Below, piece by piece: positions 19,458-63,319 of a stretch of 64,000 nucleotides of DNA; the first letter of the stretch is position 1; the number at the start of each line of letters is the position of its first letter. Position numbers and translations under genes: made by a program. Origin of the DNA: a virus; the IMG/VR virus record IMGVR_UViG_3300032285_003860; one strand, written 5' to 3'. The notes beneath the pieces are model-generated. The model did no database searches. It was not told the origin of the DNA and saw only the letters and a program-made list of their open reading frames with translations.

Positions 19458-19517
19458 ATCTAATTATATTACACAAAAAATGACATTCTATTATTTTATT
19501 TGTGTGTAAGTATTTTT

Positions 19518-19751
19518 ATGAACGAACAAGATAAACCAAAATTGAATGACCCAGAGCCAAATAAAGAAAATCCTCAAACAAATGATAATTCTTCTATTCT
19601 TGGAGTATCAATTAGGGGATGGATTGCAATGGTTGTGGTTGCAACAATCTGCTTAATGTCTGGATTAAAGATAGACATTAAAGAACCTTTATATACATTA
19701 GCTGGATTGATTGTTGGGTTCTACTTTGGGCAGAATCCTAAAAAGTCATAA
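19518..19751 (+). CDS. Holin-like two-TM membrane protein
   Basis: Two hydrophobic helices ending in IVGFYFG; ATG 14 nt after GTGTAA. Confidence 0.55.
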   Translation: MNEQDKPKLNDPEPNKENPQTNDNSSILGVSIRGWIAMVVVATICLMSGLKIDIKEPLYTLAGLIVGFYFGQNPKKS

Positions 19752-19754
19752 GTC

Positions 19755-20273
19755 ATGCCTTACAAAAATCCAGAGCAAAAAGCTGCCTATGCCGCGAGGT
19801 ATAGAGAGACAAATAGAAAAAAAGCAAATACTTATGCCAAGCAGTATCGCATAGAAAATAAGGAGATAGTTGTTTCTAAAGTCAAAGCATGGAGGCAACA
19901 TAATCCTAATTGGGAAAGAGTTTCAGGTTACAATATAAAAAGGAACGCCAGTAGAAAAAAACGCTATAATACCAATATTCTGTATCGTTTGAAAGCTATT
20001 TACCGCGCCAATTTGACTCGTTATGTTTATCTAAAAAATGGCAAACACACCGATGAATTACTAGGATGCTCGATTGAGGAATTAAAAAATTATTTGACTT
20101 CAAAATTTCAAAAAGGAATGACTTGGGGGAATTATGGCAAGGGATGGCACATTGACCATATTGAACCATTATGCAGAGCAAAAACTTATAAAGAATTTGA
20201 GACTCTTTCTCATTTCACCAATTTACAACCACTATGGGCAGAGGATAATTTATCTAAAGGAAATAAGTTTTGA
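19755..20273 (+). CDS. HNH homing endonuclease (GMTWxNYG type)
   Basis: LLGCSIEEL, GMTWGNYG, WHIDHIEP, NLQPLWAEDNLSKG. Confidence 0.88.
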   Translation: MPYKNPEQKAAYAARYRETNRKKANTYAKQYRIENKEIVVSKVKAWRQHNPNWERVSGYNIKRNASRKKRYNTNILYRLKAIYRANLTRYVYLKNGKHTDELLGCSIEELKNYLTSKFQKGMTWGNYGKGWHIDHIEPLCRAKTYKEFETLSHFTNLQPLWAEDNLSKGNKF

Positions 20274-20288
20274 TTCTATAATAAGTAT

Positions 20289-20804
20289 ATGAAAAAGTTT
20301 TTAACTATTATTGGTATTGGATTAGTTAGTTTTGGCCTTTTAACTGGCTGTGTGACTGCATCAAACCCAAGCGGTCAAGTTGCTGTTGGTGGAGTTCATA
20401 TTGACCCCGCTGCAACAGGCAATGCTGTTCGCATTGCTGCTAAATTGGGCGCAATGGCAGAAATTAGACATGACCCTAAAACTAGAGAATACTTTCAGCT
20501 TTCGGCGGCAGGAGTGGGAGCAATTATTGCGGCAGGAAACTATAATCCAACCAATATTCAAGCATCTCTTGATGGTTTAACTGGTAATTCTACAGTTTCA
20601 ATGAGTATTGCAGATGCCCTTTCTCTTTATCAAGACTTTTTTGGTAAATTAGTTTCCGAAAAGCTTGATGCACAAAGCCCATATACAATTCCTGTGCTTA
20701 CTGGTCTTGCCTTGGGATTACAAGATGCTGTAAATTTGACTGCTCCAGCATCAAATAATACAGATGCCACGACCCCTAATACGATACCATCTCCAACAAA
20801 ATAA
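20289..20804 (+). CDS. Lipoprotein
   Basis: Signal peptide with LLTGC lipobox. Confidence 0.7.
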   Translation: MKKFLTIIGIGLVSFGLLTGCVTASNPSGQVAVGGVHIDPAATGNAVRIAAKLGAMAEIRHDPKTREYFQLSAAGVGAIIAAGNYNPTNIQASLDGLTGNSTVSMSIADALSLYQDFFGKLVSEKLDAQSPYTIPVLTGLALGLQDAVNLTAPASNNTDATTPNTIPSPTK

Positions 20805-20810
20805 ATTATT

Positions 20811-21005
20811 ATGGGTTTTTTATCTGGAATCTTTACTGCAATAACTGGAGTCTTTAACTATATTGTTGGGCGTTCTAATGCAAATAACGCTGCGGATGTA
20901 AAAGCTGCCCAAAAAGGTAAAGATGAAGCCATGCAAGTAGATAAAACAAATAAAGCCATTGAAAAAAGAGACACCAAGGAAATGCAAAATGAACTTAGTG
21001 AATAA
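20811..21005 (+). CDS. Putative inner-membrane spanin-like protein
   Basis: N-terminal hydrophobic helix plus charged helical tail; overlaps downstream lipoprotein gene. Confidence 0.45.
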   Translation: MGFLSGIFTAITGVFNYIVGRSNANNAADVKAAQKGKDEAMQVDKTNKAIEKRDTKEMQNELSE

Positions 21006-21342
21006 ATATATTTTATTATTATCTGTGGCTTTATTTTTAAGCGTGGGATGTGTTAGTACAATCACACCTGTTCAAGTTGTTTCAAATGGAGCCTCGTTTG
21101 ATAATGGAGAAAGAAATAGCGGATTCATTGGATGGACAACAAATAATTCAATTACTTATGCTATTATTTCTGAACACGCAAGAGATAGATACAATGCTTT
21201 AATTGATATTTACGGCAATAAAATTATACCACCAATTAAAAAAGATTATGGTGTAACAGATAATAAAACAAATTGCTTTATTACTCTTGAGGCGCTCTCT
21301 AATTTTGCCAAAATGAATCGTTGGCGCAAAAACGGGCAATAA
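20989..21342 (+). CDS. Lipoprotein, putative o-spanin-like
   Basis: LLLSVALFLSVGC lipobox; overlaps preceding TM gene. Confidence 0.55.
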   Translation: MNLVNKYILLLSVALFLSVGCVSTITPVQVVSNGASFDNGERNSGFIGWTTNNSITYAIISEHARDRYNALIDIYGNKIIPPIKKDYGVTDNKTNCFITLEALSNFAKMNRWRKNGQ

Positions 21343-21383
21343 ATTAACATATTCCCCTTTGTTTTGTGTAATAAAGGAGGAAT

Positions 21384-22010
21384 ATGGAACAATTTTTTTT
21401 AGACAATTCCAATAAAATTTATTATTTAATTTCTGTTTTTACGGCAGTTGTCACTTTTGTAGGTTTTTTATCTAAATATTTAAGAAAGATAATAATTAAA
21501 ATTAGAGAAAGAAACGCTAGAGTGGAGGAAATCCACAATAAAGTAGAAAAAATCTTTGAAGAAATTACCCCAAACCACGGCTCCTCAATAAAAGATAAGA
21601 TAAATTCATTAGATAAACGAATGGATAAAGTAGACGAAAATCTTGTTCTAAATAACAAATTAACTGAAAAAATATTTTACAGACAAAGATGGATATTAGA
21701 TAATCAAGCCGCAGCAGTTTTTGAAAGTGATGTTAATGGAAAATGTATCTGGGCAAATGTTCATTATTTAAAATTAGTTCAAAGAGACATGGCTTTTATA
21801 CTTGGCAATGGATGGAAAAATATTATTCATCCAGATGATAGAGAAAGAGTCATAATTAATTGGGATCGTTGCGTAGAAGATGGGATTGACGCAGAAGATA
21901 CATACAGAATCATTGATATTGAAGGAAGAGTTTATAGGGTTTTCTGTTCTGCTACCAAAACAGAAGGTAATGGATACATTGGCTCAATAAAAGTGCTTGA
22001 TAACGAGTAA
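21384..22010 (+). CDS. Membrane-anchored PAS-domain protein
   Basis: N-terminal TM, coiled coil with PNHGSSIKD, then PAS: VFESDVNGKCIWAN...ILGNGWKNIIHPDDRERV...YRI. Confidence 0.85.
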   Translation: MEQFFLDNSNKIYYLISVFTAVVTFVGFLSKYLRKIIIKIRERNARVEEIHNKVEKIFEEITPNHGSSIKDKINSLDKRMDKVDENLVLNNKLTEKIFYRQRWILDNQAAAVFESDVNGKCIWANVHYLKLVQRDMAFILGNGWKNIIHPDDRERVIINWDRCVEDGIDAEDTYRIIDIEGRVYRVFCSATKTEGNGYIGSIKVLDNE

Positions 22011-22057: not shown

Positions 22058-22615
22058 ATGGAGCAGGAAAATAGAAGCCGCACTTATAAAAGGCGCACCA
22101 ATATAACAATAAATTGTTCTGGGTGCGGTAAATCTTTCGAAAGAATAGAATACGAATTTGAAAGAAAATCTGCGCAAGGACAAACAAAATTCTTTTGTAC
22201 TGAAAGCTGCGCTAAAAAATCAATTGGATTGGCAAGGATAAACGAATTTAGTCCATTTAAAATAATTTTTGCGGCATCAAAAAGTGGTGCAAAAAAGAAA
22301 AAACTAGAATTTAATTTGACCCTAATTGAATTGAAAAAGAAATGGGACGAACAAAAAGGAATTTGCCCCTATTCTAAAAAGAAAATGGTTTTACCCACAA
22401 GTGCTTCCAAAAAAACTGTTATACCTTCACTAAAATCTGCCTCTTTAGACAGAATAGATTCTTCAAAGGGTTATACATTGGATAATATAGAATTTGTTAC
22501 CAGATTTGTAAATTTAGGAAAAAATACATATTCAGGAGAAGATGTTCATAGTTTTTTAAAAGAAATGGTTGAAGAGTGGAATCGTAACAAAATTGACTCA
22601 CTGCCAAACATATAA
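22058..22615 (+). CDS. HNH/endonuclease VII-like homing endonuclease
   Basis: CSGCGK..FC..SC zinc finger; QKGICPYS; SLDRIDSSKGYTLDNIEFV...VN..K. Confidence 0.82.
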   Translation: MEQENRSRTYKRRTNITINCSGCGKSFERIEYEFERKSAQGQTKFFCTESCAKKSIGLARINEFSPFKIIFAASKSGAKKKKLEFNLTLIELKKKWDEQKGICPYSKKKMVLPTSASKKTVIPSLKSASLDRIDSSKGYTLDNIEFVTRFVNLGKNTYSGEDVHSFLKEMVEEWNRNKIDSLPNI

Positions 22616-22635
22616 AGCGTGTAAGTTAAGATAGA

Positions 22636-23358
22636 ATGAAATATCTTAGCGTATTTATATCAGACACCCACATTGGAAGCAAAAATACTAATATAAAGAA
22701 GCTTTTGTCTTTTTTAAAAGAAGTAGAATGCGAAAACTTATTTATCGTTGGAGATTTTATTGATGGATGGGAATTAAAATCCAAATGGCGTTGGAAAAAT
22801 GACTATAACACGCTCTTGCAAAAACTCTTAAGAAAGAGTCGCAAAGGAACAAAAATATACCTATTGATTGGAAATCACGATGATTTCCTTTTTCCTTTTA
22901 AAGATACAGAATTTGGCAATATATCCATACTGCGCGATTATGTTCATGTTACCGCAAATAAGAAAAAATGTTTAGTTATTCATGGCGACCAGTTTGATGG
23001 CATAATTAAATATGCAAAATGGTTGCAACACATTGGCTCTCACCTCTATAATTTAATCATTGACCTAAATACCCTAATCAATAGATTAGCTAGAAAATTT
23101 GGCAAAACATATAGCTTTGCAAAAGCAATAAAACAAAACACAAAAGCCGCATTAAGTTTTATAAACAAATTTGAGCAATGCGTAATTGATGATGCAAAAA
23201 AGCATAACGCAGAAATTGTGATTTGCGGTCATGTTCATACCCCTTGTCATAAAAAAATAGAAGGCATTGAATATTTTAATTGTGGTTCTTGGCAGGAAGA
23301 TGAATTTCATGCTGTGGTAGAGACTCAAGATGGAAAATTAAAACTAATTGATTTATGA
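22636..23358 (+). CDS. plcP: PlcP/LpxH2-like metallophosphoesterase (phospholipase C)
   Basis: FISDTHIGS, VGDFIDGW, QKLLRKSRKGT, GNHDDFL, HGDQFD, ICGHVH, NCGSW: the PlcP/LpxH2 signature rather than canonical LpxH. Confidence 0.8.
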   Translation: MKYLSVFISDTHIGSKNTNIKKLLSFLKEVECENLFIVGDFIDGWELKSKWRWKNDYNTLLQKLLRKSRKGTKIYLLIGNHDDFLFPFKDTEFGNISILRDYVHVTANKKKCLVIHGDQFDGIIKYAKWLQHIGSHLYNLIIDLNTLINRLARKFGKTYSFAKAIKQNTKAALSFINKFEQCVIDDAKKHNAEIVICGHVHTPCHKKIEGIEYFNCGSWQEDEFHAVVETQDGKLKLIDL

Positions 23359-24395
23359 AATGCGTATTTATTATTCAAGGAGAAGGCAGAGGGCATTCGA
23401 CCCAAGCAATAGCGTTAGCGCAAATGCTAAAAGAACTTGGGGTAGAAGTTATTGCAGCATATATTGGTAAAAATCATATTGGACGTAACCATGATTGGGT
23501 ATTTAAAGAAATTGGAGTTGATGAGAATTATTTTTATAGCCCCAATTTTGTTTACAAAAACAACGAAGTGTCATTAAAAAGAACTGCTTTTAAATTCATT
23601 AAAAATATTTTTCAAATAAGAAAATCAATAAAACATCTCAAAAATGAACTTAAACAAATCAATCCAGATTTTGTGGTCAATTTTTATGAGCCACTTGCCC
23701 CTTTTGCTAAATCTGGCTTACAGATTCCTACTGTAACCATAGGGCATCAATTTTTAATTGACCATCCAAGTTATCCGCAGCAATTACCAATGCAAAGGAA
23801 ATTAATCAGCCTTTTTAACAAATTAGTATCCTACCATAGCACTAAAGTAATAGCCCTTAGCTTTTATCCTTTAGTTGGTCAATACAAACACTATATCGCT
23901 CCTCCTCTTTTAAGAGAAGAAGTATTAAAAGCAAAACCAAAAACTATTTTCAATAAAGTTGTTGCGTATGTAATTAATCCAATTTTTGTTCATAGTATCA
24001 CTCAACAAGCATTTTGTTATTTAAAATATAAATTCACAATTTATAACGAATTATACGAACACAAAGGATTTAATTTTCAATCTAAGAAAATTTCCCCAGC
24101 TTTTGTTGATGATTTATTATCTGCCGAATATATTGTAACATCGGGGGGTTTTGAAACAATTTCAGAAGCTCATTATCACGAAAAAAAGATTTTAGCCGTG
24201 CCTGTTAAAAATCATGCAGAACAAACCCTCAATACTATAGATGCATCAGAGAGAGGAATCATATTAACAAATAATGATTATGATTTAAGTAAACTGCTTT
24301 TAAAAAATAATAGATTTCAAAAATCGCAATTTTCAAAAGAAGAATATAAAGAATGGTATATTAGATTCTTTAAAAACTTTATCAAAAATATTTGA
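23355..24395 (+). CDS. GT-B glycosyltransferase (MJ1255/VC2487-like, GT28-related)
   Basis: QGEGRGHSTQA, PDFVVNFYEPL, IGHQ, PPLLR, SGGFETISEA, PVKNHAEQ..N; ATGA-coupled to plcP. Confidence 0.82.
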   Translation: MKCVFIIQGEGRGHSTQAIALAQMLKELGVEVIAAYIGKNHIGRNHDWVFKEIGVDENYFYSPNFVYKNNEVSLKRTAFKFIKNIFQIRKSIKHLKNELKQINPDFVVNFYEPLAPFAKSGLQIPTVTIGHQFLIDHPSYPQQLPMQRKLISLFNKLVSYHSTKVIALSFYPLVGQYKHYIAPPLLREEVLKAKPKTIFNKVVAYVINPIFVHSITQQAFCYLKYKFTIYNELYEHKGFNFQSKKISPAFVDDLLSAEYIVTSGGFETISEAHYHEKKILAVPVKNHAEQTLNTIDASERGIILTNNDYDLSKLLLKNNRFQKSQFSKEEYKEWYIRFFKNFIKNI

Positions 24396-24718: not shown

Positions 24719-25090
24719 TTAATCAGCGTGAAGTTCTGCGTGGCAATTAGCGCAAATTAACTCGCATTTTTCGGCTTCTTTATAAGCAGCAGCTTTTCCT
24801 TTTAAAGCAAATAATTTACTAACTAAAGCTTCTTTTTTTAAAGGGTCTTTATGGTGAAAATGTAAAGCATCAAAACACTTATCATAAGAACACCTAGAGC
24901 ATTTTCCCCCGTAAAGATTTTTTAATTCAAATAATTGAATTTTTCTATTTTTTCGGCGATATGCTAAAAATTTTTCTTTTGCTCCTTCGGCGCAATGATA
25001 ATTAATTGTAGCTTTTGAGCAGTTTAGTATTTTGGAAATTTCACTATAAGATTTCCCTTTTTTTCTTAATTTGAGTATTTTTTCTTTCAT
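24719..25090 (-). CDS. HTH-HNH homing endonuclease inserted in tRNA cluster
   Basis: GKSYSEISKILNCSKATI HTH; GGKCSRCSY...LHFHH...CELICANCHAELH. Confidence 0.88.
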   Translation of the reverse strand: MKEKILKLRKKGKSYSEISKILNCSKATINYHCAEGAKEKFLAYRRKNRKIQLFELKNLYGGKCSRCSYDKCFDALHFHHKDPLKKEALVSKLFALKGKAAAYKEAEKCELICANCHAELHAD

Positions 25091-25190
25091 AAAAGAACTT
25101 ACACAAGTTTAAATCATTTGAGAAGACTCGAACTATTTATGCGACAATAATCATAATTTAATTTTATGCGTTATATAGCAGATAATTTAT

Positions 25191-27680: not shown

Positions 27681-27722
27681 TTTTTTTAGACACTTTATCT
27701 TTTTTTGTGTAATATAAAGTAT

Positions 27723-33842: not shown

Positions 33843-33877
33843 CTTGATAATTGCCCAAAAGTGTAATTATCTTCTAT

Positions 33878-63288: not shown

Positions 63289-63319
63289 AAAGTTATATTA
63301 TTAAATTTACACTATTTTG

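Follow-up and report, generated by a model that had tools for sequence, protein, structure and literature searches.

We analysed a stretch of 64,000 nucleotides from the virus record IMGVR_UViG_3300032285_003860 (IMG/VR), called the window throughout, with a focus on the gene run at 19518-22010 and on the membrane-anchored PAS protein of 208 amino acids (aa) encoded at its end. An original prediction, made from the letters of the DNA, had read this run as a lysis module with a signal-responsive holin or antiholin. The PAS gene is carried by a 162,952-bp metagenome scaffold. Based on this scaffold and on the gene content of the window, which includes a class II ribonucleotide reductase, a DNA ligase, UvdE, a GyrB-like ATPase and sugar-modifying enzymes, a large uncultured phage was assigned as the source of the gene. 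The G+C content of the 64-kb window is 30-45%, and three HNH endonucleases, a tmRNA and six tRNAs are also encoded. The gene run starts on the plus strand after two divergent genes, and no intrinsic terminator was found inside it. The PAS gene and the signals in front of it show the following features:

21366..21380, plus strand: GTGTAA (21366-21371) and Shine-Dalgarno sequence AAGGAGG (21374-21380), preceding the ATG of the PAS gene
21384..22010, plus strand: membrane PAS protein, 208 aa (profile, model and family search)
21420..21482, plus strand: membrane helix, residues ~13-33 (hydrophobic stretch; N-out/C-in by the positive-inside rule)
21561..21599, plus strand: HolA-type signature E-x-x-PNHGSSIKDK at the turn of a helical hairpin (profile and model)
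21702..21995, plus strand: cytoplasmic PAS domain, residues 107-204 (PF08447 and Foldseek)

The PAS part was recognized by the PAS_3 profile (PF08447) with an E-value of 6.9e-9 and 36.3 bits at a cutoff of 25.6. An AlphaFold2 model of the monomer (pLDDT 93) places a long helix at residues 9-61, which contains the membrane segment, a loop with the PNHGSS residues at 62-68, a second helix at 69-106 and the PAS fold at 107-204. Five strands (111-115, 121-124, 170-177, 183-193, 197-204) form the sheet expected of a PAS domain. The suggested order of membrane helix, coiled coil with PNHGSSIKD and PAS domain was confirmed for the helix, the motif and the domain, while the coiled coil appears in the monomer model only as a long helix. 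Foldseek matched the PAS domains of RsLOV, MmoS and FixL at about 1e-6 and 13-19% identity, and profile comparisons of the PAS part found MmoS (3ewk) and Aer (8dik). A LOV-type or an Aer-like PAS domain with flavin adenine dinucleotide (FAD) gained no support from the family alignments, in which the flavin-cysteine motif of LOV domains and the R-H pair of Aer both lack conservation. Residues W123, N125, Y128, W144, D152, R153, R155 and W160 of the PAS core are invariant in alignment A1, and this strong conservation suggests, as read from the alignment, a functional pocket or interface.

An output domain (HisKA/HATPase, GGDEF, HTH or other) was found neither in the 208-aa protein nor in 84 family representatives, in agreement with the earlier statement that kinase and output domains are missing. 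A clear N-terminal hydrophobic helix is present in 73 of these representatives and the strict PN(H/G)GxS pattern in 65. Lysine and arginine are commoner after the helix than before it in 82 of the 84 (means of 3.7 versus 0.4), so that by the positive-inside rule the N-terminus lies outside and the PAS domain in the cytoplasm. A word-indexed search yielded 43 full-length relatives (188-215 aa), located on contigs no longer than 260 kb. Dozens of clusters at 50% identity came from an exhaustive HMMER search; their proteins, of approximately 185-225 aa, align from the membrane helix to the C-terminus. The HMMER search also returned many unrelated multi-PAS kinases that match in the PAS part only. 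Two longer members, P0073 (385 aa) and P0162 (396 aa), carry one membrane helix followed by two motif-PAS units in tandem, again with no output domain. The family is restricted to phages: its members are frequent in viromes from water and soil, and 185,579 prokaryote genomes are essentially devoid of them. A tblastn search of 50,697 cultured phage genomes with the PAS protein gave no match. Family members in BFVD are labelled only "PAS domain [uncultured Caudovirales phage]", a search of the ESM Atlas with residues 1-100 gave no usable match, and in our literature searches no paper was found that ties a PAS domain to phage lysis proteins.

The helical hairpin between membrane helix and PAS domain links the protein to a second family. 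Residues 45-84 match phrog_9869 at 5.4e-6 and, more weakly, phrog_4153, phrog_1009, phrog_404 and phrog_15431 ("holin"). A scan of IMG/VR revealed 30 loci with small motif-only proteins of 63-132 aa (one incomplete at a contig end), which consist of a membrane helix, E-x-x-PNHG(S/T)SIKD and a short helix. Their E-values range from 1e-8 to 3e-20 for phrog_9869 and reach 1e-11 for phrog_15431; no Pfam family was matched. Using hhalign, the PAS family and the motif-only alignment were joined over 37 columns with a probability of 98.5% (E 3.9e-15). Cultured relatives include proteins of Arthrobacter phages (e.g. LiSara gp70, Mufasa8 gp22), an open reading frame of Streptomyces phage mu1/6 and HolA of Actinomyces phage Av-1. 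Av-1 HolA carries KPNHGGSSVD, and its gene lies directly before holB and lysA; the Av-1 record describes a single membrane region and states that HolA "appears to enhance holin activity of HolB". Downstream of Mufasa8 gp22 lie, in this order, genes for a metallo-endopeptidase, a hypothetical protein, a holin and a peptidase. On L027 the motif gene stands after tail genes and before a protein matching three endolysin PHROGs (1e-16 to 1e-21); contigs with L-numbers (L001, L003, L004 etc.) are loci with relatives of the PAS, the two-helix or the motif-only proteins. The association of the motif family with lysis genes is real, and it is far from universal. We consider the architecture of the 208-aa protein and its homology to HolA-type accessory proteins as solid.

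Upstream of the PAS gene, the predicted holin-like gene with two membrane helices, the lipoprotein and the overlapping pair of membrane protein and lipoprotein were all found. An HNH endonuclease gene had been omitted from the earlier gene list. The features are:

19504..19509, plus strand: GTGTAA, 8 nt before the ATG of the two-helix gene
19518..19751, plus strand: two-helix membrane protein, 77 aa (two hydrophobic segments)
19755..20273, plus strand: HNH endonuclease gene (phrog_1035, 3.3e-9)
20289..20804, plus strand: 171-aa lipoprotein, lipobox LLTG/C, 66% identical to a 187-aa protein of L065
20811..21005, plus strand: 64-aa protein with hydrophobic N-terminus and highly charged helical tail (from sequence)
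20989..21342, plus strand: 117-aa lipoprotein, lipobox SVG/C, with an overlap of 17 nt with the 64-aa gene

The 77-aa protein has a likely N-in/C-in topology and resembles class II holins in shape. Its family comprises 55 clusters and is well conserved, with an invariant R33 before helix 1, an invariant C45, an EPLYT loop and a C-terminal GFYFGQN tail ending in ..KK; these features appear compatible with the N-in/C-in topology of class II holins. Profile libraries returned a weak match to phrog_13256 and no significant match to a holin family. For the HNH gene, the comparison with L004, whose PAS protein is 89% identical, was informative: the genes flanking the HNH position abut there, and nothing at that place matches the HNH protein. 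For this reason the gene was treated as an insertion outside the module, and it looks like a recent homing-type insertion. Two further HNH genes are located in the window at 22058-22615 and 24719-25090.

The slot of the 171-aa lipoprotein is variable; in L003 and L064 a C92 peptidase and an OmpA-like barrel (PF01389, 3e-4) take its place. The 64-aa protein shows 70% identity to a 63-aa protein of L065 and 34% to a 60-aa protein of L003. Basic residues come after its hydrophobic stretch, which suggests a cytoplasmic tail. The 117-aa lipoprotein is the best conserved periplasmic member of the cassette (51-57% identity in L003, L064 and L065) and has no match in Pfam and PHROG. The overlapping pair had been described as spanin-like. 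One trait of spanins is present, namely an overlap with a lipoprotein as the second gene. The first protein has only 64 aa with a cytoplasmic-type charge distribution, compared with an N-in/C-out i-spanin with a long periplasmic coiled coil. An Rz/Rz1-type spanin identity of 20811-21005 and 20989-21342 was rejected on size and topology. o-Spanins are small and proline-rich; the mature lipoprotein has approximately 97 aa and a conservation (51-57% identity) like that of a folded domain.

Four lineages with PAS proteins of 51-89% identity retain the order of two-helix gene, 64-aa gene, lipoprotein and PAS gene, and the two-helix gene heads the cassette in L003, L004, L064, L065 and L066. Four of these loci have the following gene orders:

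L065: two-helix gene, 187-aa lipoprotein, 63-aa gene, 126-aa lipoprotein, PAS gene (order as in the window)
L003: two-helix gene, 143-aa protein, OmpA-like barrel, 60-aa gene, lipoprotein, PAS gene
L064: virion protein (phrog_1645, 1e-82), 173-aa gene, two-helix gene, 146-aa protein, barrel, lipoprotein
L066: two-helix gene, lipoprotein, 146-aa protein, 41-aa lipoprotein, two further genes, terminase

The PAS reading frame of L065 is full-length if read from an upstream ATG, and no PAS gene was found within 7 kb of the two-helix gene in L066. The proximity to a virion protein (L064) or to a terminase (L066) provides a late-gene context, as expected for lysis genes. In L003 (4367-4798) and L064 (7216-7656) the gene directly after the two-helix gene encodes a permuted NlpC/P60 protein (Peptidase C92) of 143-146 aa. 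His26 and Cys103 (in WFCSE) are invariant, with the histidine before the cysteine as in a permuted papain fold. PF05708 was matched by 9 of 25 relatives, and an AlphaFold2 model (pLDDT 90) matched BcPPNE (3kw0) and YiiX (2if6) in Foldseek. This enzyme is a reasonable but unproven candidate for wall cleavage; it may be a wall-cleaving or a lipid-cleaving enzyme of this phage group. The C92 profile gave no match in the window or in five related records. These five PAS-bearing virus records are designated G001-G005, of which G002 is IMGVR_UViG_3300050821_001527 (202,882 bp, 91% complete). Among the endolysin families searched in them, PF00959 (Phage_lysozyme) was found only in G004, and PF01510 (Amidase_2), PF01464 (SLT) and PF13539 (Peptidase_M15_4) gave no match in any.

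The C92 protein has distant homologues in metagenome-assembled genomes of Verrucomicrobiota, a hint at the host. A second hint at the host group comes from L003:1657-2343, where one protein combines a prepilin-type N-terminal methylation signal with SBP_bac_10 (DUF1559), as is usual in Planctomycetota and Verrucomicrobiota. At 16071-17445, between ribonucleotide reductase and cassette, the window holds a block with a 93-97-aa protein, an ECF-type sigma factor (16401-16916; phrog_1740, 1.6e-21) and a 182-188-aa protein. The same block is kept in L064, L065 and L010, i.e. throughout this phage lineage, and ribonucleotide reductase, sigma factor and cassette are collinear across the nearest lineages. 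Downstream of the PAS gene a metallophosphoesterase and a GT28-type glycosyltransferase are encoded (22636-24395). A patatin-like phospholipase adjoins the PAS gene in L006 (3980-4921), in L010 (5573-6481, minus strand) and on one ENA contig; these patatin/PAS loci are flanked by secreted proteins or lipoproteins, and lipid-acting enzymes recur beside the PAS gene.

Both the two-helix gene and the PAS gene are preceded by GTGTAA. Of the GTGTAA promoter with a strong Shine-Dalgarno sequence in the original prediction, both elements were found before the ATG of the PAS gene. Overall, GTGTAA is not over-represented in the window, with 26 sites versus 23 expected. Ten of the 26 fall 8-31 nt before the ATG of an open reading frame of at least 50 aa, a start-proximal fraction which is the top of all 180 letter permutations (mean 12%). 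In 9 genes GTGTAA, often as TTTGTGTAAT, stands 8-18 nt before the ATG. Example sites in the window are:

18448-18453, 19469-19474, 25099-25104 and 63307-63312 (minus strand), and 22619-22624, 27707-27712 and 33861-33866: GTGTAA

From this distribution GTGTAA is a plausible phage promoter-like element, which several unrelated genes share with the genes of the two-helix and the PAS protein. A promoter at this position would give very short leaders and might be recognized by the sigma factor that the phage itself encodes (16401-16916). No temporal class emerged from the PHROG search for the other genes preceded by the element.

Our preferred interpretation, which we hold tentatively, is that the 208-aa protein is a HolA-type holin accessory with a cytoplasmic sensor. 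By the positive-inside rule the protein is bitopic in the inner membrane, with approximately 12 residues outside, one helix and the remainder in the cytoplasm. The hairpin with the PNHGSSIKD turn opens the cytoplasmic part, and the PAS domain stands in place of the short tail of HolA-type proteins. As for its partner, the direction of its effect and ligand binding by the PAS domain, we infer the following. The protein would act as accessory of a hole-forming protein, for which the 77-aa two-helix protein is the candidate in this lineage. Holin triggering would be helped or held back by the membrane helix and the hairpin; the PAS domain would shift this balance according to a signal in the cytoplasm, e.g. 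a metabolite or the redox or energy state of the cell.

Several observations weigh against this interpretation. As in the original prediction, no endolysin was recognizable in or next to the run, nor anywhere else in the 64-kb window. Holins are typically encoded next to an endolysin, and for the 77-aa protein a C92 peptidase follows in L003 and L064 only; C92 enzymes are not known to be endolysins. The concept of a lysis module gained from this peptidase and lost from the distribution of the cassette, which is conserved only in the closest lineages, where its synteny may simply be inherited and need not reflect a functional link. L064 has its PAS gene in inverted orientation, 2 kb upstream of the cassette. 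Among the five PAS-bearing records the two-helix gene is present in G001 and missing from the other four, one of them 91% complete. In more distant relatives the PAS gene is surrounded by other functions: in the clade L007-L024 the order is DnaB, ribonucleotide reductase, PAS, Mom, an unknown protein, a MoxR-type AAA protein and a 690-aa protein, and in L001 and L026 the PAS gene lies between pyrophosphatase and dCMP deaminase. The anchor family adds to these doubts. Most motif-only loci have no recognizable lysis neighbour; the recurrence of PNxGSSxxD proteins near lysis genes named in the original prediction holds in part, with Av-1, Mufasa8 and L027 as the three cases. Other motif-only genes lie next to a glycosyltransferase, tail-fibre-like genes or ThyX-like plus ribonucleotide reductase-like genes (the latter by eye). 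The Arthrobacter phage members are called "holin" in RefSeq and "membrane protein" in GenBank, and the link to Av-1 is based on a short motif and one record note. The neighbourhoods are mixed, with three motif members beside lysis genes and the PAS gene among replication and nucleotide genes in other clades.

These same neighbourhoods feed the strongest competitor, a membrane-tethered cytoplasmic PAS regulator with no role in lysis, in which the hairpin would be a generic oligomerization or docking module close to the membrane. Such a protein would control an early or middle function in nucleotide metabolism, replication or transcription, or keep this function at the membrane. DnaB, ribonucleotide reductase, Mom, the MoxR-type AAA protein, dCMP deaminase and pyrophosphatase are the PAS neighbours in most of the divergent clades, the motif-only protein between ThyX-like and ribonucleotide reductase-like genes belongs to the same picture, the PAS family is wider than the two-helix family, and this lineage encodes an ECF-type sigma factor 4-5 kb upstream. 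Large phages, however, scatter their lysis genes, so a position among replication genes says little, and small members of the motif family do sit inside lysis cassettes. We rate this regulator as somewhat unlikely. An anti-sigma factor was dropped as a specific form of it, since Sigma70_r2 was found only in G001 and G002 among the five PAS-bearing records; the topology of the PAS protein is also opposite to that of classical anti-sigma factors.

The lipoproteins and lipid-acting enzymes could alternatively belong to an envelope-remodelling or superinfection-exclusion cassette. Together with secreted proteins they would alter the envelope of the host in the course of infection, and the PAS protein would be the membrane regulator of the cassette. 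Two lipoproteins in the cassette, the OmpA-like barrel of the relatives (PF01389, 3e-4), the patatin phospholipases adjoining PAS genes in L006, L010 and one ENA contig, and the metallophosphoesterase and GT28-type glycosyltransferase that follow in the window agree with it, and the substrates of YiiX and BcPPNE, the closest solved relatives of the C92 fold, are not established. No cassette family with a tested exclusion function was found, though, and a two-helix protein at the head with virion and terminase neighbours in L064 and L066 fits late lysis genes better; we judge such a cassette to be quite unlikely. Least probable in our view is a PAS domain that senses nothing and serves, ligand-free, for dimerization or partner binding in a constitutive structural holin accessory or another membrane scaffold. 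Tandem motif-PAS repeats would fit a scaffold, the LOV cysteine motif and the Aer-type pair are not conserved as read from the alignments, and the matches to solved PAS structures are generic at 13-19% identity; the invariant residues of the PAS core, on the other hand, exceed what a bare fold needs.

Lysis timing sets the burst size and fitness of a phage, and the known controls of timing depend on holin concentration, on membrane potential or on superinfection. If the HolA-type accessory with a cytoplasmic sensor is correct, a sensor domain inside a lysis accessory would add conditions within the host cell to the inputs that phages can read. The PAS family, with its small size of about 200 aa, lends itself to direct tests and would also offer a first functional handle on the uncharacterized PNHGSSIKD family (phrog_9869). 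In many large uncultured phage lineages the combination of a PAS domain with a HolA-type anchor would then constitute a cytoplasmic lysis checkpoint, which advances or delays the holin according to redox, energy or metabolite state. This generalization we regard as doubtful at present. Were it true, the checkpoint would be a lysis clock gated by a signal, with a mechanism other than that of T4-type lysis inhibition.

Comparing the 208-aa protein with known systems, the closest likeness is to the HolA, phrog_9869 and phrog_15431 proteins, with which it shares a single membrane helix at the N-terminus, a helical hairpin on the cytoplasmic side and the signature (K/R)PNHG(G/S/T)S(I/V)(K)D. Among them, an experimental note exists for HolA only. 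HolA-type proteins have 60-160 aa and a short charged end helix, whereas the 208-aa protein is larger and carries a PAS domain instead. Some HolA-type genes directly adjoin holin and endolysin genes; the gene of the 208-aa protein has no recognizable endolysin nearby. With the short LOV and stand-alone PAS proteins (RsLOV, PpSB1-LOV) it has in common a PAS core with flanking helices and no output domain, and RsLOV as well as the FAD-PAS sensors Aer and MmoS are among its best structural or profile matches. It differs from these in its membrane anchor, a phage-specific module, and in that its family conserves neither the cysteine motif of LOV domains nor the R-H pair of Aer.

In cluster F1 mycobacteriophages, LysF1a and LysF1b (Girr gp34/gp35; Ms6 gp26/gp27) are both needed for normal lysis timing (PMC13056207). 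Compared by architecture only, they resemble the pair proposed here, as a two-helix N-in/C-in protein of approximately 80 aa is accompanied by an N-out/C-in protein that has one membrane helix and a helical tail in the cytoplasm. A PAS domain is missing from LysF1b, and the LysF1 genes directly follow lysin A and lysin B, unlike the genes in the window. Lysis inhibition in T4 involves the holin T and the antiholins RI (periplasmic) and RIII (cytoplasmic side) (PMC11413866, PMC8385771). There, too, accessory proteins link holin triggering to a signal, and RIII acts from the cytoplasm. A relation in sequence or fold does not exist, and the T4 signal is a superinfection sensed in the periplasm, whereas the signal proposed here would be received by a membrane-tethered PAS domain in the cytoplasm.

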